NCBI GenBank assembly: GCA_963422375.2
Contig: OY729428.2
Coordinates: 2,400,001 to 2,464,000, forward strand
DNA length: 64,000 nt
Direction of reading: 5' to 3'
From: Bryobacterales bacterium
Lineage (GTDB): Bacteria > Acidobacteriota > Terriglobia > Bryobacterales > UBA6623
Shown here: piece by piece, positions 5,685 through 56,649 of the stretch
How the letters are laid out: each line of letters begins with the position of its first letter
How positions within the stretch are numbered: position 1 is the stretch's first letter
Notes under the pieces: generated by a model
Seen by the model: the letters and a program-made list of their open reading frames with translations, nothing else
The model's database searches: none
Told to the model about the DNA's origin: nothing
Program-made: the position numbers and the translations under genes

Positions 5685-6827
5685 CTACGGAGACTGTACC
5701 ACACTCGGGCAGAGCTTGGCCGCAATTCGATCCACGGCATCCCTGCGGTCGTCCAGCCGGACGTGCAGGTAGCGGGCGTTGATGCCGGTCGCCTTGTGCC
5801 CGAGCTGCGCCATCCTCTGGGCCTCGGACACGCCTTCGTCGAACAGCCACGTGTTGTGGGTATGACGGAAGGCGTGCCAGCTAACGGCAGGCACGCCGGC
5901 GAAGGCTGCCGCGGGCTTGAGATGCCGGGCGGCAAGAGTGCATCCGTCGAGCGGGTTCCCGGTGCGCGCTGCGAAAGCGAAGCGGTCCTTGCCGCGGTCG
6001 CCGCCGGAACGCCGCAGCAGGATCGCGGCCATCGGGTCCGACAGGGGGATTACCCGCTCGCTCGCCGCGCTCTTGAGCGGGCCCAGCTTGCCTCGGTACC
6101 ACTGCTGGCGAATCGCGACGGATCGCGGCGGCAGCCGCACGGCCCCGGCGGAACGCGGACCCCGGCCGACGTTGACCCAGAGCCACTTGAGACCGAGGAT
6201 CTCGGAGATCCGGCATCCCGAGAGCAGGGCGAACAAGGCCACCTCGCGGGCGTCTTCCGACGCGAGGGCGTCGATCAGGGCGCGGGCCTCGTCGTAGGCC
6301 AGGGCGAACGTCTCCTTGGGCATCTTCCCCGCCACGCGCACGCCCTTGGCCGGATTGCGCCCGTCGAAGCGGTCCTCGTCGGCGGCAGCCTCGAAGACTC
6401 TGTGCAGCATCGCCCGGACGTGCCGCACGGTCTGGCCGGCGTAGCCCGACTCGGCCATGCCGTCGCAGACGCGCTGCACGTCGGCCTTGGTCACGTCGAT
6501 CAGGCGCTTGGCCGAGAGCCACTCGGGAACGTGGTTGCGGACGAGCGCGCGGTACCACTCGGGATGGCGGGTGCGATCCGCGTGCTGCGGATAGAACACG
6601 TCCTCGACGAACCCGCCGAGCGTGTCCCCGGACGGGGGCGCGGCGTCTTCGAGCTTGGTCAAGTACACCTCCGCGAAAATCTGCCGCGCCACTGCGCGCG
6701 GCACGGCGAACGGGCCGTCGGCCGGAGCGACGCTGACGCGAGGCGACCAGCGGAGGCCGACGGGGGACTTCCGCCGCCAGCGGGCCTTCCACATGCCGGC
6801 CGAGACGACCATCTCTCCGGCCTGCAT
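5685..6827 (-). CDS. int: Phage tyrosine integrase
   Basis: SGCRISE (R), LKS (K), HAFRH, LGH, ARY catalytic residues; adjacent to att. Confidence 0.95.
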   Translation of the reverse strand: MQAGEMVVSAGMWKARWRRKSPVGLRWSPRVSVAPADGPFAVPRAVARQIFAEVYLTKLEDAAPPSGDTLGGFVEDVFYPQHADRTRHPEWYRALVRNHVPEWLSAKRLIDVTKADVQRVCDGMAESGYAGQTVRHVRAMLHRVFEAAADEDRFDGRNPAKGVRVAGKMPKETFALAYDEARALIDALASEDAREVALFALLSGCRISEILGLKWLWVNVGRGPRSAGAVRLPPRSVAIRQQWYRGKLGPLKSAASERVIPLSDPMAAILLRRSGGDRGKDRFAFAARTGNPLDGCTLAARHLKPAAAFAGVPAVSWHAFRHTHNTWLFDEGVSEAQRMAQLGHKATGINARYLHVRLDDRRDAVDRIAAKLCPSVVQSP

Positions 6828-17660: not shown

Positions 17661-18017
17661 TCAGAGCTCGCGCAGGTCGGCCAGCTGCTTGTTCAGCTCG
17701 TCGCCCTCGCTCCCGGCGCCCTCGCCGTCGCTCTTGCCGTCGCCGTCGCTCTTGCCGGCGCCGTCCTTCCCGTAGTAGCCGACATACATTTCGGGGTACC
17801 GGTAGAAGCTGTCGTCGCCCTGGATGCAGTAGGAGCACAGGCGGCTCGTGTATCCGACGGGCATGGAGGATCCGCACTCCATGCACTGCATTCCCGGGCT
17901 GGTGTCGTACTCGCGCGGGGGCTCGATCATGGGCGGGCGGTTACGCTTGGAGCCCATAGCACCCGGAGCCTTTCCGGGCGGGGGCGCGGGGTTACGCTTG
18001 GATGCCATGGCCCTCAT
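17661..18017 (-). CDS. CxxC-CxxC Zn-finger protein ending in a copy of a scaffold segment
   Basis: ATGA overlap with the giant ORF stop; CMEC...CSYC; last ~30 aa match the scaffold. Confidence 0.6.
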   Translation of the reverse strand: MRAMASKRNPAPPPGKAPGAMGSKRNRPPMIEPPREYDTSPGMQCMECGSSMPVGYTSRLCSYCIQGDDSFYRYPEMYVGYYGKDGAGKSDGDGKSDGEGAGSEGDELNKQLADLREL

Positions 18018-30000: not shown

Positions 30001-33000
30001 CCTTCCGCGAGCCCCCGCTCGCGCCGGTCGCCCGCCTCTTCCGGCGCCTCCCCTTGTAGAACTCCTCGAGTTCTCGCGCGGCGCCTTCGATGTCCTCGGC
30101 GCTCATGACGTAGAGCTGCTCCAGCAGCTCCCTGCTCATGTCGCCGAAGTCCGCGAGCATCCGCTCCCGCCAGCCCTTGAATCCGTCGTCCTCGATGCGG
30201 GCCATGCCCGCGACCGCGCCCAGCCCGTCGATCCTGTCCGTGTCGTCCGCCAGCACGGCCTTGGCGAACGCGGCGTCGTCGGAATCGTCGCCCGGCCTGA
30301 CCTTGCCGCCCTTCGGCTTGCCCGGCGTCCGCGGGCCTCCCGCGGTCTCGCCTTCCTCGCTCTCGGCCTGCTTGCCCGGCGTCCGCGGGCCTCCCGCGGT
30401 CTCGCCTTCCTCGCTCTCGGCCTGCTTGCCCGGCGTCCGCGGGCCTCCCGCGGTCCCGCCTTCCTCGCCCGCGGCCCGCTTGCCGCGGCCGCCGCGCTTG
30501 CCGCCGGTCCCGGCATCGCCCTCCCCGGCGTCCTCGGGGGCCCCGAGCTTCTTCGCGGCGGATTCGACCCAGCCCGTGGCGTCGTCCAGGGACTCCTTGC
30601 CGATGTCGGCGAGGATCTGGTCGAGGGCTTTCCCCCTGTCGCGTCCGAACGCCTCGTAGTGGAACTCGGCCAGTTCCTGCCCGTCGGCGGCCCGCTCCAT
30701 CTCGCTGGCCGCGGCGTCCTGGAGGCGGCCCGCGGCCTGCGCGGCGGCCTCGCGCCCGACCCCCTCGTTCTTCGCGCCGTGACCGTCGGGCCAGACGACC
30801 TGGATCGCGGCGGTTCCGTCGCCGCCCTCCGCCCCGGCCGCCTCGGGCGTGGCCGGCGGCGGCACGGGGCCCCCCGGCGGCACGGGGCCCCCCGGCGGTA
30901 CGGGGACTCCCGGCGGTACGGGGGAGCCCGGCGGCACGGGGCCCCCCGGCGGCACGGGGACTCCCGGCGGTACGGGGGAGCCCGGCGGCACGGGGCCCCC
31001 CGGCGGCACGGGGACTCCCGGCGGTACGGGGGAGCCCGGCGGCACGGGGCCCCCCGGCGGCACGGGGACTCCCGGCGGTACGGGGGAGCCCGGCGGCACG
31101 GGGCCCCCCGGCGGCACGGGGACTCCCGGCGGTACGGGGGAGCCCGGCGGCACGGGGCCCCCCGGCGGCACGGGGACTCCCGGCGGTACGGGGGAGCCCG
31201 GCGGCACGGGGCCCCCCGGCGGCACGGGGACTCCCGGCGGTACGGGGGAGCCCGGCGGCACGGGGCCCCCCGGCGGTACGGGGACTCCCGGCGGCGTATC
31301 CGCCGGCGGGGTTCCGGACGCGCCCGGATCGGCAACGGTTCCGGCATCGGCGCCCGTCCCGGTCCCCGCGCCCGCTTCCCGCTCGGACTCCTTCTTGCTC
31401 CGGTCCAGCGCTTTCAACCGGGTGCGGAGGATCTTGAGCAGCGACCTCAGCCGCTGCGTGGAGAGCGCGCTTTCCGCGATGGGGTCCGCGGGACCCAGGC
31501 CGACCGCTTCCTTGGCGCCGGCGATCATGCCCTCGGCCGCGCTCTTGCCGTGGACCCTCTCGGCGTATTCGCGCAGGCTGAAGAATTCGGCCGATACCTC
31601 GGCCCGGGTCAGCTCCTCGGCCTCCCGTTCCTTCGCGTCCCGCTCGGCGGCCTTCAGGCTCTCGCCCTGCAGCTGCCGGAGGAATCGCTGCCGCTTCTCC
31701 GCGGGCAGGTCGTCCGGGCTGTCGATGCCCTTGTAGCCCGCGAGAATTTCCGCGACCAGGGTGCCTTCGGGGTCCGCCGTCCGGACCTCGCCCAGGAATG
31801 CTTCCAGCGCGGGATCGGCGATCTTCTCCGCCCGGGCGCCCTGCAGCGGCAGGTCCATCTCGAACGGATCGTCCGGGCTGTCCTCCCGAACCAGCTTCAC
31901 GAAGGCCGGGATGACCGAGCCGTCCTCCTCGGTGACGCTCGCGCCGGCCCCGGCCACCCTGGCCTTGACCTTCTCGCCCGCGTCGTCGTCGATCCGAATC
32001 CACTCGCCTACCTTGGCCGGCAGCTGCCCCGCGGCCAGGATCCGGTTCTCCGCGACGTCCGCCTCGGCGTCCGCGACGATCTCCTTGCCCCTCCGGACCT
32101 TGTCCGTGTCCACCGGGGAGCGCTCGTCCTCGGGCGTGACGCTCGCCGCGGCCTCGCTCGCCTTCTTCTCGCGCTCGGTGGCCCGCCGCCCGTTCCGGCG
32201 GTTGTCCCAGGCCGTCGAAACCGCCGAGAAGCCGCCGCCGGCGACGCCTCCCGCCACGCCTTCGACGGCGACGTTCAGCGCCCGCCGGTCCAGGTTCGGG
32301 TCCCCGGTCGCCATGGCGACGGTGGTCTCGTGCAGGATCGCTTGGATCGCCTCGGTGGATCCCTCCTTGCCGAATCCGATCCCCGCTTCCGCCAGCAAGC
32401 CCTTCCTGTCCCTGGCCGCCAGGGTCGAGGCCAGGTGCTTGAAGAACTCCTTGCGCTTGCGCCCGGCGAGCCCCTTGATCCAGCCGAATCCCAGCGAGTC
32501 GACGCTGCCGATCAGCGGCGCGACCCAAATGGCGATGTCCGCGGCGCGCTTGTCGTCTCTTTCCGCCTCCCCGGGGGCGTTCCTCAACCCCTCCGACCCC
32601 GACCAAACCGCGTTCCGCTTGGCGGCGAACTCTTCCTGCAGCGCGGCGAAGAGCTCGCCCTTCGCCATGATGCCGCCGACCGTGAGGGCCGCGCCGAGGC
32701 CTCCGAAGGTTCCGCCCGCGACCGCTCCCGCCGCCGCTCCTTTCGGGCCTCCCGCGGCGCCCAGCTTGGCTCCGGCCGCCGCTCCGGCCGCGGTTCCGGC
32801 CGCTCCGGCCAGCAGCGACGGGATCGTGGTCCCGACGCCCTGGGCGAGCGTCGACACGAGCTTCCCGGCATCGAGGAAATCGGACCAGCTCTCGATGGAC
32901 CGGACCTCGCCCACGGGGATCCCCCGGGCCATCTTCCGGATCGCGATGCCGTTGGCGCGCCTGTCCTCGTCTCCGGACCGGATGCCCTCCGCTTCCCACG

Positions 33001-33571
33001 CCGCGCCCAGCATCTCGAGATTGGATTGCGTCAGGCCTGCGAACAGCCCCCGCAAGCCGGCCTCCCACCAGCTCGGCCCCTCCTCTTCCTCTTCCGGCCG
33101 GGGGGGCGCGGCGGGGAGCGACTCCGGGAACCCCCGCAGGAACCCGCGCTCGTTGAAATCCGTCGCCGGGGGGTACCGTTCCCCCTCCAGGTCGATCCGC
33201 GACCGGATCTCCGAGGCCTGCCGCCGCCACGCGGCCGCCCTGCTCGGCAGGCTGTCCAGCCACTCGCTGAAGTTCCTCTCCTCTTCCTTCAGCTGCTCCT
33301 TGAAAGCGTCCGAGCGCCCCTCGATCTCTGCGATCTCCCTATCGGCGCTTTCTCCAATTTCTTTCCGCTGGCCTGCGTGACGCTCCCCGATCCGTTCCGT
33401 CTCGTCATCGAGCTGCTTCTTCTGGTCCTCCAGCCATGTATCGTGCCGCGCCCGCCGCTGCTGCACGAACTCGTCCGCCTCCCGCCTCTTCCTCTCCCGG
33501 CGTTCCCTGGACTCGAAGAACAGGTCGTCGAGAACCTTCCGCAGGTTCGGACCGGGAACGTGTCTGGCCAT
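18014..33571 (-). CDS. Giant polyvalent DarB-like protein (LPD1-like, N6-MTase-like, SNF2 helicase, zincin-like)
   Basis: 5185 aa. [88 protein letters not shown]. Confidence 0.9.
30318..30470. repeat. 54-bp tandem repeat (~3x, [18 protein letters not shown])
   Basis: Seen directly in DNA and protein. Confidence 0.85.
30856..31294. repeat. Higher-order VNTR: 8 x 54 bp built from 18-bp subunits ([18 protein letters not shown])
   Basis: Near-perfect repeats inside the giant ORF. Confidence 0.95.
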
Positions 33572-38659: not shown

Positions 38660-38981
38660 TGCGGCGGAGTTTCGCTCCGGCGGCCCTCGTCGCCCTCGTC
38701 GCCCTCGTCGCGCTCGTCGCGGCCAGCTCGATCTCGCGGATCGCCTTGATGATCTCGGCGTGCTCCCGGCGGTGCATGTCGGTCATCGAGACCAGCTGGT
38801 CGCAGGCCTTGGCGATCTTGCCGTACATCTCCGCCAGATCCCCGCAGGACCGGGACACCATCCTGTGCATCTCCGCGATCTGGCTCATCGAGCGCGTGGC
38901 GCGCTGCACGAAGAAGGCCGCGGCCACGATCAATATGACCAGGCTGACGCCGCTGTCCACGACCTGCACCCACTCGCCCAT
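38652..38981 (-). CDS. Membrane-anchored protein (lysis module)
   Basis: One TM plus helical tail; coupled. Confidence 0.55.
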   Translation of the reverse strand: MGEWVQVVDSGVSLVILIVAAAFFVQRATRSMSQIAEMHRMVSRSCGDLAEMYGKIAKACDQLVSMTDMHRREHAEIIKAIREIELAATSATRATRATRAAGAKLRRNG

Positions 38982-38984
38982 TCC

Positions 38985-39635
38985 TTACCTCCCGAACAGG
39001 ACCGTCAGGCCCATCGACGCCCCCGGCGACCAGCCGGGACCGAATCCCTTGACCGCGCCGGCCGTCGCGCCGACGCCCCAGCGCAGCTTCCAGCGCTGCC
39101 TCCCCTCGAGCGTCCCGGCGCGGGCCTCGGCCAGCTCCCGGGCCGCCCGCTCGCGCTGCGCCAGCTCCTCGAAGCGGTCGGCCAGCTCCCGCACGGAAAC
39201 GGTCTCCCGGCGCGCCGCCGCCAGGGCGTCCCGCAAGGCGGCCACCTGCCGGAACAGCGCCTCGATCTCCTCGCCGCTGACCCGCAGGGCCTCCGGCAGA
39301 TCCGCGCGGAGCAGCTCCAAGCGCTTCCGGTCGAGCGCGGCTACGGGCAGTGTCTCCCGCTCGGCCGCGGCGACCGCGGCGACCGTTTCCGAGCCCCTCC
39401 GCTCGGCCTCGGCGCGGGCGGCCTCGGCCGCCTCGCGAGCCTCCCTCACGGCCGCGGCCCGCAAGCCCATCTCCGCCGCGTAGGCTCGCGCCTCGGCCTC
39501 GATCCGCGCCCGGCCGGCCCGCTCCCAGACGGCGAGCGCCTGCGCGGGCAGGCCCGGGGCCGGCAGCAGGGCCGCCAGGCCGAAGCCCAGCCCGACGCCG
39601 GCGGCCAGCGCCCCCGCCAGGGCCCAGGCGCTCAC
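38985..39635 (-). CDS. Spanin-like TM + coiled-coil protein
   Basis: N-terminal TM, long Ala/Glu/Arg coiled coil, beta-strand-like C-terminus (possible unimolecular spanin). Confidence 0.55.
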   Translation of the reverse strand: MSAWALAGALAAGVGLGFGLAALLPAPGLPAQALAVWERAGRARIEAEARAYAAEMGLRAAAVREAREAAEAARAEAERRGSETVAAVAAAERETLPVAALDRKRLELLRADLPEALRVSGEEIEALFRQVAALRDALAAARRETVSVRELADRFEELAQRERAARELAEARAGTLEGRQRWKLRWGVGATAGAVKGFGPGWSPGASMGLTVLFGR

Positions 39636-39844
39636 GCGCCCCCCTGCCGGCGGTGCCAGGCTTTCGCCAGCCGCTCGAGCGGCCCGCAGAGCGCCGCCCA
39701 GGCCCCGGACTGCAGCATGGCCGCCAGTCCGCCGACCGCCAGCAGCAGGCCGCAGGCGATCTCCAGCCAGCGCGCGTTCGCCAGCAGGACGAGCCCCGCG
39801 AACAGCGCCGCGACAGGCACGGGGCGCGGCCGGAACGCCGTCAC
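39632..39844 (-). CDS. Small membrane protein
   Basis: GTGA overlap; 2 hydrophobic segments. Confidence 0.5.
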   Translation of the reverse strand: MTAFRPRPVPVAALFAGLVLLANARWLEIACGLLLAVGGLAAMLQSGAWAALCGPLERLAKAWHRRQGGA

Positions 39845-40170
39845 GACCGCTCCTCGGGCGGCGCGAACACGGGGTGCAAGCGCTCGAACTCCCGCCCGGT
39901 GAACGTCATCACCGCGCCCCGGGCGTCCCGCACGGCCATGCGCCCGACCCCGAACTCGACGATCCGGCAGTCCCGCATGGCGGTGTGCGGCAGGCCCTCT
40001 ATCTCCAGCCGCTCGATGGTCGCGCCGACGCGCACCAGGGGGTCGGACGCCAGCCGGCGGTAAGCCCGCCGCCGCCGCCCGCCCTCGACGAAGGCCGACG
40101 CCCCGAACGCCGCCAGCGGCGACAGGAACGCCAGCGCCAGGGCCGTGCACAACGCTTCGATCATGGTCAC
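39841..40170 (-). CDS. Membrane-anchored hypothetical protein
   Basis: GTGA overlap; N-terminal TM MIEALCTALALAFLSPLAAFG. Confidence 0.55.
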   Translation of the reverse strand: MTMIEALCTALALAFLSPLAAFGASAFVEGGRRRRAYRRLASDPLVRVGATIERLEIEGLPHTAMRDCRIVEFGVGRMAVRDARGAVMTFTGREFERLHPVFAPPEERS

Positions 40171-40382
40171 TCGCAGTCCCCCCGGGCGCACTGCCAGGCC
40201 AAATGCAGCGCCAGCGCGCCGCACGACACGAACACCACCGCCGGCCCGATTTGGAACGCCAGCAAGGCCATCCGCTCTATCCGCTGCCCCAGATCGTGCA
40301 CGTTCATCGCCCACAGGAACGCGAGCGCGATCGAGGCGCAGCCCAGGGCCGCGAGCCCCAGCGTCTTCGCGAGCGTCTTCAT
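40167..40382 (-). CDS. Small 2-TM protein (holin-like)
   Basis: MKTLAKTLGLAALGCASIALAFLW...; directly after the endolysin. Confidence 0.55.
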   Translation of the reverse strand: MKTLAKTLGLAALGCASIALAFLWAMNVHDLGQRIERMALLAFQIGPAVVFVSCGALALHLAWQCARGDCE

Positions 40383-40390
40383 CGGATTCG

Positions 40391-40930
40391 CTAGCGGCAG
40401 CCGCCCTCCCGGTACAGGGGCACGAGGCCCCCGACCTTCGCCGGGTAGGCGCGGTTCTCCGCGCAGGCCCAGGCGGCCCGGATGCAGTGCCGCTCGACGT
40501 GGCCCGTCCAGCGCCGCGGGTCGCAGCCCGGCTCGCGCCGGCAGCGCGACTTCTCTCTCGCGATCCAGCCCGGTCCGCCGTTGTAGGCCGCCCACGAGAA
40601 CTCCCACGGCTCGCGATCGAAGCGGTAGCGCGCCAGCAGCCGCCGCATGTAGACGATCTGGGCCCGGATCGCGCAGCCCGGGTCGGTCGGGTCCGTCCCG
40701 TCGCAGCGCGGCGCGGTCAGCGGGGCGATGTCGCTCCACGTCGGCGGGGTGAACTGGGCCAGCCCGCTGGCGTAGCGCGAGCGCGCCCGCGGGCGCCACG
40801 ACGACTCGCGGTGGATCTGCGCCGCCAGCTCGGCCCGCATGCCGGCCGCCCCGGCGCGCGCGACCTCGGCCTCGAAGACCGGGGCCAGCTCGCACGGCAC
40901 CGCCAGCAGGGCCGCGGCCAGCAGGAGCAT
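40391..40930 (-). CDS. Lytic transglycosylase (SLT) endolysin
   Basis: IHRESSW, GLAQF, AAYNGGPG, ENRAYP motifs; hydrophobic N-terminus. Confidence 0.92.
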   Translation of the reverse strand: MLLLAAALLAVPCELAPVFEAEVARAGAAGMRAELAAQIHRESSWRPRARSRYASGLAQFTPPTWSDIAPLTAPRCDGTDPTDPGCAIRAQIVYMRRLLARYRFDREPWEFSWAAYNGGPGWIAREKSRCRREPGCDPRRWTGHVERHCIRAAWACAENRAYPAKVGGLVPLYREGGCR

Positions 40931-41256
40931 CAGTAGGCCCCGCCCCAGGCGAAGGCCGTCAGGGTGGCCCCGTACAGCAGGCACCAGCCCACGATGTAGG
41001 CCGCCCGGGGCACGTCCTCCCCGTGCTGGCTGAACGGCGGCTGGCCCCGGATCACCTTGAGGATGTCGAAATCGCGGAACAGCGCCCGCTTCATGCCGAG
41101 GAAGAACAGCGTCGCCCCGGCGCAGGTCATGGTCTTGCCCAGGAGGGCGCCCAGGGCCCGCTCCAGCTCGCCGGGCCGCGCCCCCGCGCCGCCGTCGAGG
41201 AGAGCCAGCAGGAGCCCGCTCAGAGGAATCACCAGAAAAAACAGCAGGGCGCCCAC
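40930..41256 (-). CDS. Putative holin (3 TM)
   Basis: Three hydrophobic segments; coupled to the SLT gene. Confidence 0.7.
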   Translation of the reverse strand: MGALLFFLVIPLSGLLLALLDGGAGARPGELERALGALLGKTMTCAGATLFFLGMKRALFRDFDILKVIRGQPPFSQHGEDVPRAAYIVGWCLLYGATLTAFAWGGAY

Positions 41257-43536: not shown

Positions 43537-44289
43537 TCAGAAGCCCGCCACGCGGTCCGCCACCGCCGGGGCGCCCCAGCCCGCCGCCGCCCGCTCCTGC
43601 GAGCGGCGCGTGCGGGCCACCCTCAGGCCGCTGCGCAGGCCGTAGCGCATGCAGTCCATCAGGTGGTCGTGCTTCTTCACCACGCGCCCCCTCTCGTCGC
43701 GGCGGTAGATGCCGAACTCGAAGCGGAAGTACTGGAGCGTGCGGAACACCCGCAGCCGCCCCGTCTGCATGCGATCGTAGCACTCCTCGATGCCCGCGCT
43801 CACCGCGTTGTCCGCCGGGTGCATCGCCAGCCCGCAGCGGGCGTAGCTCTCCATCACCGACTCGCCGTCCTTCACCGTCGCGCCCGCCGAGGACGGGTCG
43901 ATCACCCCCGGCACCCACGCCCCGCGGGCCTTGATCGCCAGCGCGTGCAGCTGCACCGGCTTGCGCCCCTGGTAGTACTCCGACACCAGGTACGCGCAGT
44001 CGGCGTCCCGGTCGTGCGCCAGCCACAGGCACGCCGTGCGGTTCCAACCCGTGTCCAGCGCGAAGCAGCGCGTCCACGCGTCCGGCACCCGGAACGGATC
44101 GACCGTGATCGAATCCACGTCCAGGTCGTAGATGCGCCCGACCCCCAGCACCGGCTCCCCGCGCACCCGCGCGCCCCGCAGGTGCGGCGGCGTCGCCGAC
44201 AGCATCTCCCGCTTGGTCTTCTCCGCCAGGTGCGGGACGTCCCCCCAGCCCACCTGCGTCGTGTAGCGGCTCCCCCCGACCCGCGGCAT
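43537..44289 (-). CDS. Terminase large subunit, C-terminal nuclease part
   Basis: WGDVPHL, ALDTGWNRTA, IDPSS, DHLMDCMRY; own GGAGGT RBS. Confidence 0.88.
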   Translation of the reverse strand: MPRVGGSRYTTQVGWGDVPHLAEKTKREMLSATPPHLRGARVRGEPVLGVGRIYDLDVDSITVDPFRVPDAWTRCFALDTGWNRTACLWLAHDRDADCAYLVSEYYQGRKPVQLHALAIKARGAWVPGVIDPSSAGATVKDGESVMESYARCGLAMHPADNAVSAGIEECYDRMQTGRLRVFRTLQYFRFEFGIYRRDERGRVVKKHDHLMDCMRYGLRSGLRVARTRRSQERAAAGWGAPAVADRVAGF

Positions 44290-44323
44290 CTCGCCCTACC
44301 TCCCGGCCCCGCTCCCGGCCCCG

Positions 44324-45154
44324 CTACCAGCCCGGACGCGCGTCCGGGTCCGGCGGCCGCAACTCGTCCGGCAGGAAGTTCAGCACCACGTCCGTCAGCC
44401 CCTCCAGGGGCGTGAAGGTCAGGTACACGATCCCGTCCACCGTGCCCGTGCGGATCACGCACTCCCCGTACACGTCGTCCGGAGGCTCCTCGTCCAGCCA
44501 GATCACGTGCTTGGCCGTGCCCTCGAACGAGCCCCGCCCCTGCTCGTAGCTCTTCAGGGTCAGCAGGCTGCGCTCCGTGCGCGAGTCCCGCCACAGCACG
44601 TCCACCTCGTTCAAAAGCGCGTTGAAGCCCGAGCGGAACTTCGCCGACTGGTGCGCGATCCGCTCCGCCGGCACCATCCCCTCGCCCGACAGCCGGTTCT
44701 GCCCCCGCGAGTCCTTGCGCACCGGCCCGAACAGCTTCTCCTGCACGATGTCCCGCGTGGTCTCGTTGGTCTTGCCCACCGCCCACGCCTGCACCGGGCG
44801 GTCGAACCTCCGGCCTTCCCACCAGTCCGGGTACAGCCCCGTCAGATGCGCCGTCATCTCGTAGGCCGCCATCTCCGTCTTGCCCGTCCGGTTGCCCCCC
44901 ATCACCGCCCGCTCGCGCGCCCACGCCCCCGCCCGGAAATGCTCCAGGTGCTTCGCGTAGGCGTGCCGCGACAGCTTGCCCGTCCCGGGGTACATGCGGA
45001 AGTACCGCCCCCCCTTGCTCAGCTTGCCCAGCTCCGACAGCACCTCTCCCAGACGCTCGCGCGCGGGCGCGTCCAGCCGCCCCACCGCTTCCGCGTCCCG
45101 CGCCGCCCGCGCCAAACGCTCCGCCGTCTCCGCGATGGCCGCTCCCTGCATCAA
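44324..45154 (-). CDS. Terminase large subunit, N-terminal ATPase part
   Basis: Walker A GGNRTGKT, KSYEQGR, Walker B WLDEEP, coupling motif TFTP. Confidence 0.9.
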   Translation of the reverse strand: MMQGAAIAETAERLARAARDAEAVGRLDAPARERLGEVLSELGKLSKGGRYFRMYPGTGKLSRHAYAKHLEHFRAGAWARERAVMGGNRTGKTEMAAYEMTAHLTGLYPDWWEGRRFDRPVQAWAVGKTNETTRDIVQEKLFGPVRKDSRGQNRLSGEGMVPAERIAHQSAKFRSGFNALLNEVDVLWRDSRTERSLLTLKSYEQGRGSFEGTAKHVIWLDEEPPDDVYGECVIRTGTVDGIVYLTFTPLEGLTDVVLNFLPDELRPPDPDARPGW

Positions 45155-45226: not shown

Positions 45227-45845
45227 GTGTGACAAGTGTGACAAAAAGTGTGACACTTTTCGTTTCGATGAAGCCATTGGAAACAAAGAACTTAATCTCT
45301 GGAAACGCGAACTCTAGGTCCCGTCACACTTGTCACGCCAAAATATGCCCTTCACGACATGCGCGCATGCGCGTCTGCGCGCCCGCGCGGGCGCGCGCGT
45401 ACAGGGGGGGCATATTTTGTGTGACAACCGTGACATACTACTACTACTACTACTAAATACTTTGTTTCCAAGGGATTAAGTGTCACGGACGGTGTCACAC
45501 TTTTTGTCACACTTGTCACACTTGTCACGCTTTTGGCTAGAAGTCGTTTATTTCCAGCGATTTAGGTGACATATATTCGTCTAATTTTTTATCTTCATTA
45601 GTATTGATTTCCGTATTTCCTCCATAGGCTGTCGGCATTTACGAAGTTCATGCGAACAAAAAACCGAAGTGTTTTTGTTTACACTCTGTGACAGCGTGTC
45701 GATAGAGCTGATACATAGCGCCGCAAGGGAAAGTGTCACTTGCCTTTGCCGGCGTAAGGCCAAGTGCGAGAGATCAGGCCGGCACGCCCTTAACTACTAA
45801 GTCCTTTGTTTCCAACGTCTCAGGTGGCACAAAAAGTGTCACGCT
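45227..45845. repeat. AT-rich region with GTGACA/TGTCAC iterons forming a ~300-bp nested inverted repeat; candidate origin
   Basis: 45227-45256 is the exact reverse complement of 45492-45521; inner arms also pair; more TGTCAC boxes to 45845. Confidence 0.8.
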
Positions 45846-45983
45846 TTCAGAGGCAGTCGGTCTTCACAAAGATTCAGGCACACTCATACGAACAGAAAAC
45901 AGAAGTTTTACGAATCGTGGCTCCGCTAGTGCCCGTGTCAGGGTGTCAAGCGGTTTCCGGGCACTATGTGATAAAATCTCGAC

Positions 45984-47460: not shown

Positions 47461-47689
47461 TTGAGTCGCCCCAGCCCCAGCGACAGCGCCAACGCGGCTC
47501 CAATCCGTCGCCGCGCCCGCCGATCTCGCAGCTGCCCCTCACGCCCCACCGCCGCGCCAGCGCCCCGCCATCCGGTTCGGCCGGCGCCGGCCCAGACTGC
47601 GATGGCCTGCCGAATCCGCCGAATCCGCCCGTGAGCCGGCCGTGTATATACACGGTGCCGGCCGAACTCCGGGAAAACCGATGACACTA

Positions 47690-47765
47690 GGAAATATTTA
47701 TGAAAAAACCAGAAATATACCTAAATACCTATTGACATGAGACCACGATGTGGTATGCTGTAGGT
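47690..47765 (+). promoter_or_regulatory. Strong sigma70 promoter P1 with A-tract UP element
   Basis: TTGACA 47732-37, 16-nt spacer containing CCACGATGTGG, TATGCT 47754-59. Confidence 0.8.
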
Positions 47766-48152: not shown

Positions 48153-48171
48153 ACGGGAGGAAAGGAACACC

Positions 48172-48906
48172 ATGACCACCTATACATGCGTTGGTCCGGT
48201 GCGCGGGTGCTGCGGCATCCGGCACCGGACCCACGAGGAGGCCGACCGCTGCGTGCGCTACGACTCGGACGGCGAAGTTTCGCTGGGCCGGCACAGCGAT
48301 CGCCAGGTGGTGGTGGCGGAGGAGCACGAGGAGCTCCTTCCGCCGATCACATATACCTGCGTCGGACCGGTGCTCGGATGCTGCGGCATCCGGCACCGGA
48401 CCCACGAGGAGGCCGACCGCTGCATCGAGAGCAGCGAGGTCGTTGCTCCCGGCGATTGGTACGATCGCCGGATCGTGATCGCCGAGCGACACGGCGACGC
48501 GATCGCGGCCGTTCGGCAGCGGATCGATCTGCCGGCCGACATCGACCTGAGCCCGGTGGGTCTCGTGCTCACCGGGCACGAAATCCCGGCGATGGTGCAC
48601 CAGCAGCTGCACGCGGCTGGCCTGCACCCGGCCACCATGTGGTGCGACCACCACATGGGCGTACTGCTCGAGGACGTGCGCGGCACGCACGTCCTCGAGA
48701 TCCTACGAGAGGACGATCGCGAGGGCCTGCCGGCCCGCCTGGCGGTGCGTGCGGCCGGGTATCACCTGCTGGTGCTACCACGACCGCACGAGCAGGCGGG
48801 CCGGGCGCGGTACTACTCGTGCACGCGCAACGGCCCGCTGTGGGCGCCGCCCGGGCCGACTATGCGGGAGGCGGGTCGCGCCGCCTCCCAGGAGGAGACA
48901 CCATGA
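48172..48906 (+). CDS. Cys/His micro-domain protein (Z-Z-X architecture)
   Basis: RBS before ATG 48172; two copies of TYTCVGPV.GCCGIRHRTHEEADRC, then the LPADIDLSPVGLV domain. Confidence 0.8.
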   Translation: MTTYTCVGPVRGCCGIRHRTHEEADRCVRYDSDGEVSLGRHSDRQVVVAEEHEELLPPITYTCVGPVLGCCGIRHRTHEEADRCIESSEVVAPGDWYDRRIVIAERHGDAIAAVRQRIDLPADIDLSPVGLVLTGHEIPAMVHQQLHAAGLHPATMWCDHHMGVLLEDVRGTHVLEILREDDREGLPARLAVRAAGYHLLVLPRPHEQAGRARYYSCTRNGPLWAPPGPTMREAGRAASQEETP

Positions 48907-49319
48907 CCGAGGGGCAATGCGTACTGCTAATTGACCCGGACCGCGAGGATTGCGCCGGCGGCACGATCCTCGCATCCCTCTCAGACGGCCTAGTAGAGGT
49001 CGACTGGGACTACGAGATTAGCGGGCCGGTCGACCTTTCCGCGCTCGAGCCGACCGAGGCGCGCAGCGCGGCGGCGCGCGATCGCGAGATCTCGCGCCTA
49101 TGGAGCGAGCGTCACGCCTACACGTGCGTCGGGAGCGTGCGGGGATGCTGCGGCATCCGGCACCGCTCCCGTGCCGCCGCCGAGCGCTGCATCGAGCGAG
49201 ACGAGCGCCGTCTCGCCTCGCATGGGTGCTTCGGCGACCGCCAGGTGGTGCTCGCGAGGGAGCACGAGGACGAGCTGCGGTACCTCGCGGAGCTCCGGCG
49301 GCGCGGCCATCCATCATGA
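48903..49319 (+). CDS. Cys/His micro-domain protein (Y-Z)
   Basis: AGGAGGAG RBS, ATGA overlap; C-terminal YTCVGSVRGCCGIRHRSRAAAERC. Confidence 0.8.
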   Translation: MTEGQCVLLIDPDREDCAGGTILASLSDGLVEVDWDYEISGPVDLSALEPTEARSAAARDREISRLWSERHAYTCVGSVRGCCGIRHRSRAAAERCIERDERRLASHGCFGDRQVVLAREHEDELRYLAELRRRGHPS

Positions 49320-49588
49320 CCTATCCCGAGCCCACCTACACCTGCCTTGGGCCGGTGAGCGGATGCTGCGGCATCCGCCACCGGACCAAGTCCGCGGCCG
49401 AGCGCTGCGTCAATCGCCACTGGCGCAGCTGCGCCGACCAGGGCGGGTACGGCGAGCGCGTCGTCGTACCCGCGGACGAGCTCGAGCCGCCGCGGCGGCT
49501 CTCCGACGAGCCCGAGGCCGCTGCCGATCTCGAGCGGCGGTACGCCGACTCGCTGCAAACGCTGCGGCGGCTCGGACATTTTCCGTGA
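49316..49588 (+). CDS. Cys/His micro-domain protein (Z + short tail)
   Basis: ATGA overlap; MTYPEPTYTCLGPVSGCCGIRHRTKSAAERC. Confidence 0.8.
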   Translation: MTYPEPTYTCLGPVSGCCGIRHRTKSAAERCVNRHWRSCADQGGYGERVVVPADELEPPRRLSDEPEAAADLERRYADSLQTLRRLGHFP

Positions 49589-50517
49589 CGCCGCCGCGCC
49601 CCGGCCACGGGGCGGAGGCGCGGTTCGCCGAGCGCTTCGCCCCGGCCACGGCCCGCCTGTACGCGGGCCAGTGGCGGGCCTGGGAAACGTGGGCCTGGCT
49701 GTCGGGGCGGACGCCCCTGCCGGCCGATTCGGCTTCCCTGGCCGAGCACGTGCTGGCGCGCTCGGCCTCGGCCTCGATGCCCACGCTGCGGGCGGCGGTG
49801 GCGGCGGTCGGGGCCGCCCACCGCTTGGCTGGATCGCCCGACCCGTCGGACAGCGAGACCGTGCGGGCGGCGCTCGCGATGGCCGCGCGCAAGATCGGCA
49901 GCGACAGCGCGCAGGCGCGGCCGCTGGACGCGGCGGCGCTCGAGCTCGTTGTCGCGACCGCGACCAAGCCCCGGCGGGGGCGGGGGGGCAGTCGGGAGAC
50001 GCCGCGGAGGGCCGAGCGGCGCGGGCGGGTGGACATCGCGCTCTGCCGCGTGATGCGAGACGCCATGCTGCGGCGGTCCGAGGCCGCGGCGCTAGGATGG
50101 GGCGACGTGGAGACCTACACGGACGGGTCGGCGCGTCTGACGGTGAGGCGATCGAAGACGGACCAGGCGGGGCGGGGGGCGGTCCTGTACCTCGGTCCCG
50201 AGGCCGCCGCGGCGCTGGCCGCGATCCGTCCGGAGACGCCGCGCGGGACGGTATTCGGCCTGGGGGCGCGGCAGATCTGCCGCCGCATCGCCGCGGCCTG
50301 CCAGGCGGCCGGCCTGGGGGCGGGCTACTCGGGCCACTCTCCGCGGGTGGGCATGGCGCAGGACTTGGTGGCCTACGGGGCGGACCTGCCCGCCGTCATG
50401 CAGGCCGGGCGGTGGTCCTCGCCCGACATGCCCGCCCGCTACTCGCGGCACCTGCTGGCCGGGCGGGGGGCCGTCGCGCAGTACTACGCGTGCGGGCAGG
50501 TCCCGCGCGGACGATGA
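49585..50517 (+). CDS. Cre-like tyrosine recombinase
   Basis: GTGA overlap; LRRSE (R), RSKTDQ (K), GHSPRVG (HxxR), GRW, MPARY; SAM-like N-domain. Confidence 0.92.
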   Translation: MTPPRPGHGAEARFAERFAPATARLYAGQWRAWETWAWLSGRTPLPADSASLAEHVLARSASASMPTLRAAVAAVGAAHRLAGSPDPSDSETVRAALAMAARKIGSDSAQARPLDAAALELVVATATKPRRGRGGSRETPRRAERRGRVDIALCRVMRDAMLRRSEAAALGWGDVETYTDGSARLTVRRSKTDQAGRGAVLYLGPEAAAALAAIRPETPRGTVFGLGARQICRRIAAACQAAGLGAGYSGHSPRVGMAQDLVAYGADLPAVMQAGRWSSPDMPARYSRHLLAGRGAVAQYYACGQVPRGR

Positions 50518-50551
50518 GAGAGGCCGGTCGCGCCGGCCAGGAGGAGACACC

Positions 50552-51082
50552 ATGACCTATCCCAAGCCCACATACACCTGCCTCGGCAGGGTGAGCGGAT
50601 GCTGCGGCATCCGCCACCGGAGCAGGGCCGAGGCCGAGCGCTGCATTGAGCGCGCGGCCGCTGCCTCGGAGGAGCAAGACGCTTATTTCGACCGCCGCAT
50701 CGTGCTCGCGTCAGAGCACGAATACGCGTTGGCGGCGGCGCGGCAGGTCATCGAGCTGCCGGCCGACATCGCGCTGAGCCCGGTAGGCCTGGTGGCCACG
50801 AGGCTCAAGCCCGAAATCCCGGACTCCTTTGAGCAGCTGCTCCTGGCGTCTGGGCTAAGCCCAGACGCCGAGTGGCGCGACGACCGCGGTCTGGGCGAGC
50901 AGGACACCAGGGATCGCATCGTCCTGGAGATCGTCCGGGAGGACGCTCGACTCAGCGAGGGGCTGTCGGCGCGGCTGGCGGTGCTGGCCAGAGCGTACCA
51001 TCTGCTGGTCCTGCCAGCTGTCCTGCCCGCCCCCATGCACGACGAGCGGGGAGGGGGCGTCGCGCGGTACGCTCGCTCCTAA
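50552..51082 (+). CDS. Cys/His micro-domain protein (Z-X')
   Basis: MTYPKPTYTCLGRVSGCCGIRHRS plus LPADIALSPVGLV...YHLLVLP, paralogous to the 48172 ORF. Confidence 0.8.
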   Translation: MTYPKPTYTCLGRVSGCCGIRHRSRAEAERCIERAAAASEEQDAYFDRRIVLASEHEYALAAARQVIELPADIALSPVGLVATRLKPEIPDSFEQLLLASGLSPDAEWRDDRGLGEQDTRDRIVLEIVREDARLSEGLSARLAVLARAYHLLVLPAVLPAPMHDERGGGVARYARS

Positions 51083-51491: not shown

Positions 51492-51565
51492 AGAAATATT
51501 TGAAAAAAATCGGCATACGGGCTAAATACCTATTGACAGACCTCCACGATGTGGTATACTGTATA
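51492..51565 (+). promoter_or_regulatory. Strong sigma70 promoter P4 (near copy of P1)
   Basis: CTAAATACCTATTGACA (-35 at 51533-38), CCACGATGTGG, TATACT 51555-60. Confidence 0.85.
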
Positions 51566-51584
51566 CAGGAAAGGAGGTCAGCAC

Positions 51585-51875
51585 ATGCAGTTTGACCTTA
51601 TCATCACGCGCCACCCGGCGCTGCTTACAGTCCTCGTCGAGGACTTCGGCGTGTCCCCGGACACGCCCGTGGTCGCCCACGCTACGGCGGGCGACCTGAA
51701 GGACAAGCACACCCTAGGCGTGCTTCCCGTGGGACTCGCGGCGCTTACCGCGAGTCACACGGAACTGGTGCTCCGGGTTCCCCCGGAGCTCCGGGGCACC
51801 GAACTCAACGCCCAGCAGGTCCGCCAGTACATGGCGGGCCTCAAGGCCTACCAAATTCAAGAGGTGACGCTGTAG
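51585..51875 (+). CDS. Csx16-like protein (candidate cOA ring nuclease)
   Basis: AAGGAGGT RBS; IITRHP, H, GVLPVGLAA, L.VPPELRGTEL...L.AY.I match the Csx16/VVA1548 pattern and size (96 aa). Confidence 0.78.
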   Translation: MQFDLIITRHPALLTVLVEDFGVSPDTPVVAHATAGDLKDKHTLGVLPVGLAALTASHTELVLRVPPELRGTELNAQQVRQYMAGLKAYQIQEVTL

Positions 51876-51882
51876 GTCACCT

Positions 51883-51911
51883 GAGGCGCCCGGGCTTAGT
51901 CCGGGCGCCTC
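51883..51911 (+). terminator. GC hairpin after the Csx16-like gene (no U-tract)
   Basis: GAGGCGCCCGG/CCGGGCGCCTC 11-bp stem. Confidence 0.5.
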
Positions 51912-51929: not shown

Positions 51930-52535
51930 ATGACGACGATGCTATCGGCGACCGCCGGCCCGACCTTGAGTGACCTCGAAAACAAGAGGCAGCCCAAGGA
52001 AGCTGCCGAGAAGTACGGTATCACGACAGCCATGTATCGGCTGATGAGGTACGACGTGCTGAATCTCTGGGCTTACGTAGAGAAGTACCGGATTAGGCGG
52101 GACACCTATTACGACATTTACAATATAGAGGTCCTTCTTCTCGGCAAGGTGGCAGTCTACGCCCCGATAGGGCGCAGGCCCGAAATTCCTAGCCGATACG
52201 TGGAAAAGGAACTGCATATCGGCGAGGTAAGGCCTTGCGGTCATCAGATTCGCGTGGAGCGCAACTACGCGAGCGAGAAGGCACCCATCGAGTATCTGCC
52301 CGAGAGGGCATTCAATAAATGCTTCGAGGGCGATATGAACGTCCTGGTCAGGGACGTCATACGTCACTTCGATATAACGTGTCGGAGGATAGCAGGCATG
52401 ATTCTCTACTCCTACGACGACGAGATATATGCTAGCAAGCTGTATCAACGTCTGAGTATGGGCAGGGAAGTTGCGGACTTGCCTGTAGCCAGGGACGCGC
52501 TCCTGAGTGAGTATCGTACCCTAAAAGGAGAATAA
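51930..52535 (+). CDS. Low-GC paralog 1, unknown function
   Basis: IGEVRPCGHQIRVERNYASE..PIEY...RDVIRHFDITC shared motif. Confidence 0.85.
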   Translation: MTTMLSATAGPTLSDLENKRQPKEAAEKYGITTAMYRLMRYDVLNLWAYVEKYRIRRDTYYDIYNIEVLLLGKVAVYAPIGRRPEIPSRYVEKELHIGEVRPCGHQIRVERNYASEKAPIEYLPERAFNKCFEGDMNVLVRDVIRHFDITCRRIAGMILYSYDDEIYASKLYQRLSMGREVADLPVARDALLSEYRTLKGE

Positions 52536-53042
52536 ATGAAATACAAATACAAGTATCTTAGTAAGTACGAGATCGACAAGCTGGGGAGGGACTTCTTCCT
52601 CATAGTAGCTCCGATTACTACGATACCTATGTATCGGATGGGCCTCGAGGGGGATCCTACGGTCCCTAAGGGCCACATGAAATACTCGTTCTGTCTAGCG
52701 GATGTTAGGTCGTGTAGTAACAGGCTCCGTATAGAGTATCATTACGCGGGCGAGTGGGATCCGCTGGAGTACATGTCCAAGGAGCGCTACGAGAGCGATT
52801 ACGGGGGCGATTTGGATACTCTATGTAGAGACATCGCACGTCGTTTCGATATGTCGTGCAGTAAGATCAAGGGCATGGTGTCTTATCAAAAGTTTCCCGA
52901 GCCCAGCGCTTGGGATGAGATAAGGGCTATTAAGCTCTACGAGTGGCTACTAACAGGCAACGAGCCGTCGGACCTGTTAGTAGGCATAGGCAAGGGTAAC
53001 GTCTTGAGGGAGTTTACCTTACTAATGAAAGGAGAAGCATGA
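52536..53042 (+). CDS. Low-GC paralog 2
   Basis: LADVRSCSNRLRIEYHYAGE..PLEY...RDIARRFDMSC; AAGGAG RBS. Confidence 0.85.
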   Translation: MKYKYKYLSKYEIDKLGRDFFLIVAPITTIPMYRMGLEGDPTVPKGHMKYSFCLADVRSCSNRLRIEYHYAGEWDPLEYMSKERYESDYGGDLDTLCRDIARRFDMSCSKIKGMVSYQKFPEPSAWDEIRAIKLYEWLLTGNEPSDLLVGIGKGNVLREFTLLMKGEA

Positions 53043-53539
53043 AGTTCGAAATGGAAAGACGAGTCGGGCCGACATACGTTGTGTATGTCGTTCCGGACGA
53101 TGAAGACCCATTACGGGTGTTCACTATGGAGAGGGGCGCAGAGACGCCCCTGAAGGTCGACCTAAAGAAGTCGATAGCCTGCTTCCGGGCGGCGGGCCGA
53201 CAACTGCTCGTAGAGAGGTACTACGCCTCCTGCGAGCTGCCCATTGAGTACCACTCTCAGTGGGCAGTCAAGCGTCTCTGGAGGCACGAGCCTCTAGAGA
53301 TCGCACGGTCTCTCGTGCGCCAGTTTAGGCTGGCGTATAACGAGGCCGGAGGAATGGTGATACGCTACCGGAGCTGTGACGACGGCTATTTCACGGCCGC
53401 TTCACAGGCTCTCTACGAAGATCTGACGGGCTTCGAGGGCCCCCAGATTAAGTTCCATAACGAGCCAGAGAAGATCACAGTACCCGTGACCTTCTACATC
53501 GTGGGAAGGGAGGAATCACATGAAGAAGAAGAAGTATGA
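53039..53539 (+). CDS. Low-GC paralog 3 (most diverged)
   Basis: IACFRAAGRQLLVERYYASCELPIEY...RSLVRQF..GM. Confidence 0.8.
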   Translation: MKFEMERRVGPTYVVYVVPDDEDPLRVFTMERGAETPLKVDLKKSIACFRAAGRQLLVERYYASCELPIEYHSQWAVKRLWRHEPLEIARSLVRQFRLAYNEAGGMVIRYRSCDDGYFTAASQALYEDLTGFEGPQIKFHNEPEKITVPVTFYIVGREESHEEEEV

Positions 53540-54077
53540 CGAGTCCGGAGCATACTACAGGGTGTATCGGTACACCCAGATGGGCTTCTGGAGTCATATC
53601 CAGAGCTACGAGGTCTCGGAAGCGGCAGGGGACTTCTTTGTTTCAGTGCGGCCTATGAACGAGATATGTCTGTACAAGCCGCCCATACATGGGGATAACC
53701 TAATTTCCAGCGTTCGGATCAATCATCCTATTCCTATCGCGGACGTAAGGCCCTGCGGTAGGGAACTGCGCGTAGAGAGATACTACGCGAGCGAGATGGC
53801 TCGCGTAGATCATATCCCTGAGGGGGTATTCGATCGCGAGTACGGGCAAGATCTAGATCTATTAGCTCGTGACATTGCACGTCATTTCGATTTGACGTGC
53901 CGTAGGATAGACGGAGCGGTGTTCTACCCGCACGCTTCAGATGGCGGCCCCCGGGAAGAGGTTAGGGCCGACAAGCTGTTTCGCCGCCTTCGGACGGGCG
54001 AGGATGTGGAGGACTTGATCCCGAACAGGAAGTATGTCCCAAAGGGGTATGCTTCCCTGCTTAAGTGGTACTCCTAA
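53520..54077 (+). CDS. Low-GC paralog 4
   Basis: IADVRPCGRELRVERYYASE...RDIARHFDLTC. Confidence 0.85.
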   Translation: MKKKKYDESGAYYRVYRYTQMGFWSHIQSYEVSEAAGDFFVSVRPMNEICLYKPPIHGDNLISSVRINHPIPIADVRPCGRELRVERYYASEMARVDHIPEGVFDREYGQDLDLLARDIARHFDLTCRRIDGAVFYPHASDGGPREEVRADKLFRRLRTGEDVEDLIPNRKYVPKGYASLLKWYS

Positions 54078-54189
54078 GCATCCGATTCGATAGTGGATGT
54101 AACTCAGGTTTGCGGGCATGGCGGATCGTTCCGCTAGAAAGGAGGTCACCTCATGAAGGTTGACCTGGTCGTCCTCGGCGCCTCGCCCA

Positions 54190-55439: not shown

Positions 55440-55672
55440 TTCCTGCACAGCAGGCTGCTCATCTGGCAGGAAATCACCCGCTGCACGATCGCGACGGCCC
55501 TTGTCCGGTCGGAGGGTCTGTCCGGGTCGATGCCGACCTGGGACGCGACGGCCGCCAGGGCTGCCGCGCCGAGGCACTCGGACACCATGCCCGCGATCCA
55601 CTCGCTCTTGCTATTGTCGTCGGCGCCGCCCAGGGGAGCGGAATCGCCGAAGGTCACGAGCGGTCGCGGCAT
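55436..55672 (-). CDS. Hypothetical protein
   Basis: AGGAG RBS before MPRPLVTFG. Confidence 0.5.
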   Translation of the reverse strand: MPRPLVTFGDSAPLGGADDNSKSEWIAGMVSECLGAAALAAVASQVGIDPDRPSDRTRAVAIVQRVISCQMSSLLCRN

Positions 55673-56649
55673 CTGCGGTTGATCTCCTGCAGGCAGGCGA
55701 GGGCCGCGGCGCGACACTCCACGAGCGTGTCCTTGGAGAGGCCGGCCGCGTCGCGATGGCCGCCGCCGCCGTGCCGGCTGGCGACGGCCGACAGGTCGAT
55801 GCCGGGGGCCTTGCCGCGGGCCCAGGGGTTGGCGCCGAGCGAGACGCCGAACTTCTCGGGGCCGCTCCAGGTCTGCACGCTGAAGAGCGCCTCGGGGAAG
55901 CGCCGGTAGGGCGCGTAGCGCGAGAAGCCGTGCCGGCCCCCGGCTCCGTCGGCGAAGGCGACGGAGCCCCGCAGCTCGCAAGCCTTCTCCGCGTCGCTGT
56001 CGGCCTGCAGCTGCCGGCGGCGCATGGCGGCGAAGCGCTCGGTGGCGGCGATCTCGCGGGCGCAGCCGCCGAGCCCCTCGGCGCGCAGGGCCGCGATCAC
56101 CGAGCTCTGCTCGCCGGGCCGGGCATGCTTCAGGTAGAGGCGGACCTGCAGCGCGGGCAGGTCCGTGTCGAGCGCCTGGTCCGCCGACTCGTAGCTCGCC
56201 GTGTCGCACAGGTCGGCCCAATGCACCAGCTCTTCCCACTGGGGGCCGGCGACGCCCAGGGCGCGGGCGATCAGGCCCGCGCAGCTCGGGGCCGAGGGAT
56301 CGCAGGCGAAGCGGCCGGGCCGCTCCCCCTTGCGTATCTCGTATTCCGCCCGCTGCGCGTAGCCGTCCGGCCCGTCGGAGAAGCTGGTCTCGTGGTGGTC
56401 GAACCACCAGGCGAGCGCGGGGTCGGGCGTCCAGCGGAAGTCGACCACGGCGCTCGCGGAGAAGCCGTGCGCGGGCAGCGGCCGCGGGTCGACGTAGGCG
56501 CGCGGCAGGTAGGCGCAGGTCGCGTCCTGGCCGAGCTCGCGATGGACGGCCTCGGTGAGGACGGCGGCGCTGATCGCGCCGTCGAAGCAGTGCCCGTGGT
56601 AGGCGACCAGCACGCTCTTGCGGCTCGGTCCGGTGACGTTCGGTTGCAT
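55654..56649 (-). CDS. DHH/DHHA1 family phosphoesterase
   Basis: YHGHCFDG, VDF, FDHH, GGGGHRDAAG. Confidence 0.9.
   Translation of the reverse strand: MQPNVTGPSRKSVLVAYHGHCFDGAISAAVLTEAVHRELGQDATCAYLPRAYVDPRPLPAHGFSASAVVDFRWTPDPALAWWFDHHETSFSDGPDGYAQRAEYEIRKGERPGRFACDPSAPSCAGLIARALGVAGPQWEELVHWADLCDTASYESADQALDTDLPALQVRLYLKHARPGEQSSVIAALRAEGLGGCAREIAATERFAAMRRRQLQADSDAEKACELRGSVAFADGAGGRHGFSRYAPYRRFPEALFSVQTWSGPEKFGVSLGANPWARGKAPGIDLSAVASRHGGGGHRDAAGLSKDTLVECRAAALACLQEINRRCRDRS

Follow-up and report, generated by a model that had tools for sequence, protein, structure and literature searches.

Does the small Csx16-like protein encoded in a prophage of this bacterium inhibit the type III CRISPR immunity of its own host? 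Few anti-CRISPR families have been proven to act against type III signalling, and several of them come without a matching virus-host pair, as is the case for AcrIII-2 according to the available part of its description (PMC12751052). In the genome analyzed here the candidate enzyme is accompanied by a host type III-B operon with its effector and by spacers directed at the carrier prophage, so that a cognate test of the whole chain is possible. Judged from sequence comparison and structure prediction, the protein is probably a cA4-degrading anti-CRISPR directed against the III-B system of the host.

The csx16-like gene is located on the plus strand at positions 51585 to 51875 of the window (the whole stretch of 64,000 nt that was analyzed). 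The reading frame is open and codes for 96 amino acids, and the Csx16 motifs quoted for it in the initial annotation are present. In a Pfam profile search the protein matched PF09652 (Cas_VVA1548) over positions 2 to 90 of the 91 in the profile, with 49.5 bits (cut-off 25) and E = 5e-13. Up to E = 1 this was the only family found, PF08960 (DUF1874) remaining unmatched. All conserved residues of the broad family are kept (R9, H10, H32, G45, L47, P48, L51, R70, G71, E73, L74 and Y89).

The curated Csx16 model TIGR02620, however, gave a score of only 19.7, below its cut-off of 46.35. The profile check proposed for the protein therefore agreed with Csx16 at the level of the Pfam family and disagreed at the level of the curated model, which places the protein in a sister branch and not among the canonical Csx16 proteins. 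The latter have been described as cA4-specific ring nucleases in vitro and are encoded in type III loci (10.1101/2024.09.24.614671), whereas the gene studied here lies in a prophage and the III-B locus of the host on another contig. No real relative of the protein was identified by a PDB sequence search, a single-protein word-index search returned only the protein itself, and PHROGs held no family for it. The DARPin matches of a PDB profile search were taken as artefacts.

The gene had also been credited with a promoter, a ribosome-binding site and a downstream hairpin of its own. A sigma-70-type promoter (TTGACA-16-TATACT; 11 of 12 matches) with an extended −10 (upstream TG) was located at 51533 to 51560, and a strong ribosome-binding site (GAAAGGAGG) at 51569 to 51577, 7 nt 5′ of the ATG, both on the plus strand. 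The single promoter site found in 3.5 kb is not above chance when compared with the mean of 0.8 for shuffled sequences. The phage early-promoter motif to which it belongs occurs four times in all, the other copies lying at 47721 (47721 to 47762, plus strand, at the head of an early cluster), 48124 and 51072, each ahead of a cluster of small plus-strand genes. From the recurrence of the motif before such clusters we infer that the csx16-like gene is situated in the early region of the prophage.

The GC-rich hairpin at 51883 to 51911 (plus strand) is real, with a stem of 13 bp and a z of −5.7 for the folded stretch of 76 nt. It has no U-run and is absent from the calls of a terminator scan of the plus strand, so that read-through into the next genes is possible. 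Promoter and ribosome-binding site were thus recovered as described, but the hairpin was not established as a terminator.

The carrier prophage has a length of about 59.7 kb and is flanked by a direct repeat of 50 bp, with the left copy at 5602 to 5651, inside the window, and the right copy at 65293, just outside. It contains genes for an integrase (5685 to 6827, minus strand), a repressor, capsid, portal, terminase, primase and helicase. Genome-wide searches for Cas10, RAMP, Cas1, Csb2 and Cas3 gave no match inside the window and the sole CRISPR array found is on another contig, which bears out the earlier statement that the window is free of cas genes. As for AcrIII-type genes, the csx16-like gene is found on a mobile element and apart from cas genes.

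Directly behind it, four tandem paralogous ORFs (201, 168, 166 and 185 amino acids) extend from 51930 to 54077 on the plus strand and are possibly co-transcribed. They show 25–37% identity to the first of them, and their GC content of 0.49–0.56 is low compared to about 0.7 for the prophage. No Pfam or PHROG match was obtained for the four, and one of them was searched further in the Atlas, IMG/VR and the relative genomes with no result. These ORFs are candidates for more anti-defence genes. Following them, at 54137 to 54173 (plus strand), a probable 5′ remnant of a second csx16 copy (ribosome-binding site and about 7 codons; 81% over 37 nt) abuts the end of a DNA methyltransferase gene.

Several other features of the prophage were observed. 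The early ORFs at 48156 to 50653 contain five copies of a Cys/His-rich module of about 35 residues, which starts with TYTC and includes GCCGIRHR; those of the ORFs that were scanned had no Pfam or PHROG match, and a search with one of them against the Atlas gave no usable match. An ORF at 55654 to 56649 resembles DHH-family phosphoesterases (phrog_4771) and may encode another nucleotide-degrading enzyme. The terminase large subunit (43537 to 45154) is encoded by two consecutive ORFs of 276 and 250 amino acids, each matching terminase families, and beside the terminase genes a cluster of direct and inverted GTCACA/TGTGAC repeats (45227 to 45847) may serve in packaging or as an origin. An ORF of 5185 amino acids (18014 to 33571, minus strand) is part of the virion gene block.

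The branch to which the protein belongs is large and diverse. In a search of 1.84 billion representatives, 815 clusters (50% identity) matched the query at E ≤ 0.001. Pattern scans resulted in 50 IMG/VR loci, plus one with a second alignment, and in 84 metagenomic stretches, from which a set of 80 was retained; 44 distinct domain sequences are contained in the IMG/VR loci and 59 in the metagenomic stretches. A scan of GTDB yielded three loci, two phage-like by ORF reading and one that looks spurious, using a pattern different from that of the viral scans, so that the counts are not comparable. Further members of the branch were found in Bacillus phage Shbh1 and in a gene cluster resembling a plasmid leading region.

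A quick tree built from 96 domains and 106 columns placed the query as sister to the copy of a second prophage family of the same genome, prophage B, within a mobile-element group of 49 rows. Between this group and the 45 canonical-type sequences, which are joined by PhiF3 ORF30 and an archaeal plasmid protein, lies a branch of 1.5 (SH-aLRT 99). This split is partly built in since the tree sets came from two seeds, with CRISPR context checked for one canonical-type gene. An independent split was obtained with TIGR02620, which was passed by 12 of 12 canonical-type sequences (67–122 bits) and failed by 12 of 12 from the mobile branch (at most 29). The branch has neither a 4-residue segment nor the Trp that is invariant in canonical-type sequences. 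The 12 residues listed above are each conserved at 80–100% in 45 canonical-type and 50 mobile-element sequences, and R9, H10, H32, G45, L47, P48, R70 and E73 at 89–100% in both groups. In the literature covered, none of the residues of Csx16 is designated as catalytic.

Since TIGR02620 was failed and the 4-residue segment and the Trp are missing, the substrate of the branch could differ from that of canonical Csx16. The protein might then be an anti-defence factor other than a cA4 nuclease, either a cA4 sponge or a protein acting on another cyclic oligonucleotide (cA3, cA6 or CBASS-type signals). The divergence at diagnostic positions would fit this, as would the low TIGR02620 scores of all 12 branch members compared with the model and the related precedents: some Csx15 proteins are non-enzymatic sponges according to the accessible part of PMC13148439, and a broad specificity was proposed for viral Csx15 (proposed AcrIII-3) in the accessible part of 10.64898/2026.10.26.761840. 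On the other hand, every conserved polar residue is kept, and a search of the host genome (96% complete) yielded no SMODS cyclase, while a type III-B system is present. We consider such a role rather unlikely and degradation of cA4 the better reading.

With regard to their context, no linkage of the branch genes to cas genes was seen. A BLASTP search with Cas queries matched none of 131 viral and metagenomic branch loci, the control locus L100 being matched by 6 of the 12 host Cas queries. Among neighbouring ORFs, 155 were picked by a simple rule and 150 scanned, with a Pfam match in 12 and a cas family in none. The metagenomic loci add up to 327 kb and are short, so the result says no more than that the genes do not lie inside cas operons. 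No cas neighbours are annotated in three plasmid and two distinct phage records either. CRISPR-like repeats in two loci (L047 and L067) looked like coding or tandem repeats on inspection and were rejected. A search with a single canonical Csx16 sequence, which is insensitive, revealed no viral relative.

Two larger proteins were noted among the related sequences. In a genome of the same genus (G016, L020:1132-2514), a Csx16-like domain without the conserved Arg is located inside an ORF of 460 amino acids with pentapeptide-like repeats. A plasmid protein of 671 amino acids is annotated as Csx16 (NC_014214, L096:10007-12022), and its record has three matching places, so several Csx16 domains may be fused.

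The AlphaFold2 model of the 96-aa protein has a pLDDT of 96.9. Among 48,161 chains its best structural match was the AcrIII-1 homologue AFV3-109 (2J6C; Z 4.9, rmsd 2.6 Å, 74 residues), followed by the Crn2 domain of Csx1-Crn2 (8Y7G; Z 4.2); both scores are weak, being under 5, and Z 4.9 is within the range that the tool assigns to common arrangements. Foldseek against the PDB and BFVD gave nothing at E ≤ 0.001. The same top structural family, AcrIII-1/Crn2, was reported for canonical Csx16 with a Z of 4.8 (10.1101/2024.09.24.614671). Furthermore, a partial similarity of Csx16 to DUF1874 is described in the accessible portion of PMC8284326. The initial annotation had called AcrIII-1 unrelated to the protein, which is not clearly so in view of these matches.

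The protein is also predicted to form a homodimer. The score was 0.71, compared with 0.01 for the best control, and the runs agreed in at least 97% of contacts (pLDDT 92). Of 30 solved homodimers 20 scored at least as high as this mark, as did 1 of 23 single chains, a rough calibration with AMP included in the prediction.

The initial annotation had proposed a check of the host for Cas10, and this search was successful. Contig C1 carries cas2, cas4g-cas1g, a CRISPR array with 31 repeats and 30 spacers (C1:378282-380516), a CARF-HEPN effector (TIGR02710) and cmr1-6, and the Cas10 of this III-B system has a GGDD motif. The NCBIfam cut-offs were passed by Cmr1, 2, 4, 5 and 6 and by the effector. 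Of the proteins of this locus only Cmr3 is under its cut-off (61.5 vs. 100.4), and an IS remnant and a frameshifted neighbouring csx1 are located upstream of cmr1, for which reasons the system may be decaying.

The CARF and HEPN motifs of the effector are G-G-S, T-G-G-T-K and R-N-x5-H. In a comparison by eye, they resemble those of the cA4-activated TtCsm6, as given in the available text of PMC10897365, which suggests that cA4 is the signal of the host effector as well; a PDB sequence search with the effector gave no match. No ring nuclease was found in the III-B locus. Genome-wide, PF08960 (DUF1874) had no match and PF09652 matched in prophages only.

A Cas6 was not detected in the host genome using PF10040, and three Csb2 genes were found. 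Csb2 cuts a 36-nt repeat to leave an 8-nt handle, according to the available part of PMC9638904. With no separate Cas6 detected, the array is presumably processed in trans by Csb2 of type I-G. Two complete-looking I-G modules (C1:426.5-434.1 kb and C2:289.7-295.9 kb) pass all NCBIfam cut-offs.

Sequencing runs X1, X2 and X5, which may include the source sample, each contain the III-B locus together with the csx16 region. Among 60 relatives, PF09652 was present in one and a Cas10/Cmr2 match in seven, with no overlap, which is uninformative on co-occurrence.

Six of the 30 host spacers match the window prophage with 0, 0, 0, 3, 3 and 5 mismatches, and six other spacers match prophage B with 0–3 mismatches. 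In a control with 300 shuffled spacers against the window prophage, the best case had 8 mismatches (one case) and all others at least 11. The perfect matches are spacer 15 (50529 to 50563, minus strand, antisense to the early operon and lacking a TTN PAM), spacer 16 (11931 to 11965, plus strand, antisense to a minus-strand gene, TTC PAM) and spacer 17 (18187 to 18223, minus strand, sense to the gene of the 5185-aa protein, TTC PAM, a target for type I-G only). Three mismatches each were counted for spacer 6 (48425 to 48462, minus strand, antisense to an early gene) and spacer 8 (50690 to 50729, plus strand, sense, TTC PAM), and five for spacer 13 (47668 to 47704, minus strand), which lies upstream of an early promoter. 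Three of the host spacers fall in or beside the genes with the Cys/His-rich module.

Because the repeat ends in the usual 8-nt handle and degenerate repeats are found at the far end, the array was taken to be transcribed from the plus strand. In this orientation the spacers antisense to prophage genes are 15, 16 and 6. No more than 2–3 of the 8 flanking positions agree with the handle, so that these spacers would be expected to activate type III. For prophage B, spacer 21 (3 mismatches) is the only antisense one. Together with the III-B operon, its cyclase motif and its CARF effector, the antisense spacers support the proposal of an anti-CRISPR at the level of sequence. Silent prophages are tolerated by type III, so the benefit of a ring nuclease would be greatest during induction or infection.

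A TTC is found upstream of 7 of the 12 protospacers, which is within the type I-G PAM TTN given in the accessible part of PMC9638904. Spacers 16, 17 and 27 match the resident prophages perfectly and are TTC-flanked (window positions 11931 and 18187; C2:1312822), despite the two I-G modules. A Csx16 ring nuclease cannot account for the tolerance of perfect, PAM-flanked type I-G spacers. The array may be silent, or another inhibitor, such as an anti-I-G protein, may be acting, and the claim of an active array is weakened by these spacers next to complete-looking I-G modules.

All three PF09652 matches in the host genome are within prophages, the two besides the window copy belonging to prophage B, which is present in three copies (csx16 sites at C1:1832367-1832657, C3:19530-19796 and C2:1341361-1341493). 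Its gene is intact in only one copy, where it is 54% identical to the window copy and located directly downstream of a CI-like repressor on the same strand. The second copy has lost the ribosome-binding site and the start codon, and the third the gene body. The two deletions differ, each lying at short microhomologies, and csx16 as a site-specific site of cassette insertion, considered since both deletions end within a few bases, was rejected on the basis of these junctions. An assembly chimera as the origin of the intact copy was also dismissed, as contigs from two runs (X1 and X2) of two studies contain the intact path as well as both deletion joints; either run may represent the source sample. 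One run covers the III-B locus but not the csx16 region of prophage B.

A block of 2.5 kb (38751 to 41196) with a tRNA-Arg(CCT) at 40087 to 40159 shows 95.6% identity between the window prophage and all three copies of prophage B. The DNA just upstream of csx16 in prophage B (C1:1832290-1832360) matches the start of a recombinase-like ORF of the window (about 49610 to 49650), which hints at an exchange of DNA between the two prophage families.

The position behind the CI-like repressor suggests an expression of the prophage B gene during lysogeny. The protein could thus be a cA4 nuclease that is useful mainly in the lysogen, where it damps auto-immune signalling from leaky prophage transcripts and supplies an off-switch for III-B, to the gain of both host and prophage. 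The host III-B locus has no ring nuclease gene of its own among those found, and an action of ring nucleases in trans was suggested previously (10.1101/2024.09.24.614671). Points against this reading are the early-type promoter of the window copy, the occurrence of the branch in the plasmid cluster and in phage Shbh1, and a possible self-limitation of the effector like that of TtCsm6 (accessible part of PMC10897365). As the main function this is unlikely, although it is compatible with the anti-CRISPR reading.

The loss of csx16 from two of three prophage B copies, which nevertheless persist, speaks against an anti-CRISPR function, though intact copies could act in trans. The broken copies, the probable second-copy remnant in the window and the partly damaged CRISPR machinery of the host would also be in line with a gene that is passively carried or decaying and has no current anti-CRISPR role. 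However, the gene in the window is intact, its signals are strong and all conserved residues are present, and the same residues are kept in a branch as large and diverse as the one described above. Passive carriage or decay is accordingly very unlikely, and an anti-CRISPR against III-B is still the preferred explanation.

Under this explanation, the array would be processed in trans by the type I-G Csb2, and spacers 15, 16 and 6 would guide Cmr to prophage transcripts, upon which Cas10 would make cA4. The phage protein would be made early from its own promoter and, as predicted, dimerise. It would cleave cA4 to linear products as canonical Csx16 does and in this way keep the RNase of the CARF-HEPN effector off during infection or induction.

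A more far-reaching proposal sees in the mobile-element branch a large, so far undescribed anti-CRISPR family against type III, its hundreds of diverse members residing in phages and conjugative plasmids. Two unrelated prophages would have acquired it here to live under type III self-targeting, one gene under an early promoter and the other in a repressor operon, and one intact copy would protect the copies that lost csx16. This wider scenario is doubtful and is put forward tentatively. The occurrence of Csx16 in phages is already published, with 2 of 28,114 phage genomes in the available part of PMC12409355, and viral ring nucleases are known; the principle is established and the surprise therefore limited. 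Should the branch prove active, phage Csx16 would grow from 2 published genomes to no fewer than 44 distinct domain sequences from IMG/VR alone. In the mainly open-access literature covered, no paper on the mobile-element branch or assay of a phage copy was found; the supplement of PMC12409355 may list members.

Compared with known systems, the window protein shares with canonical Csx16 the Pfam family, the size, the Arg, His, Glu and GxLP residues and, at weak scores, the top structural neighbour; the predicted dimer would be another common feature. It differs in failing TIGR02620, in having neither the 4-residue segment nor the Trp, in an identity of only about 33% over 55 residues to a CRISPR-linked example, and in the location of its gene in a prophage with its own promoter, outside a cas operon. 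The phage location and the absence of annotated cas genes nearby are also found for ORF30 of Methanobacterium virus PhiF3 and gp42 of Bacillus phage Shbh1. PhiF3 ORF30, however, groups with the canonical side on a long branch and reaches 45.5 bits on TIGR02620.

AcrIII-2 (viral SAVED), the Crn4b of phages and plasmids and viral Csx15 are likewise cellular ring-nuclease families on mobile elements and proposed anti-CRISPRs, according to the available parts of PMC12751052, PMC12830947 and 10.64898/2026.10.26.761840. They are separate protein families with no notable Pfam or structural match to the window protein. With AcrIII-1 (DUF1874/Crn2), a viral cA4 ring nuclease and its best, though weak, structural match, the protein has in common the proposed role, the small size and the carriage on mobile elements. 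It does not match PF08960 and the identity in the structural alignment is 12%; AcrIII-1 is a proven anti-CRISPR, whereas the window protein is a candidate.
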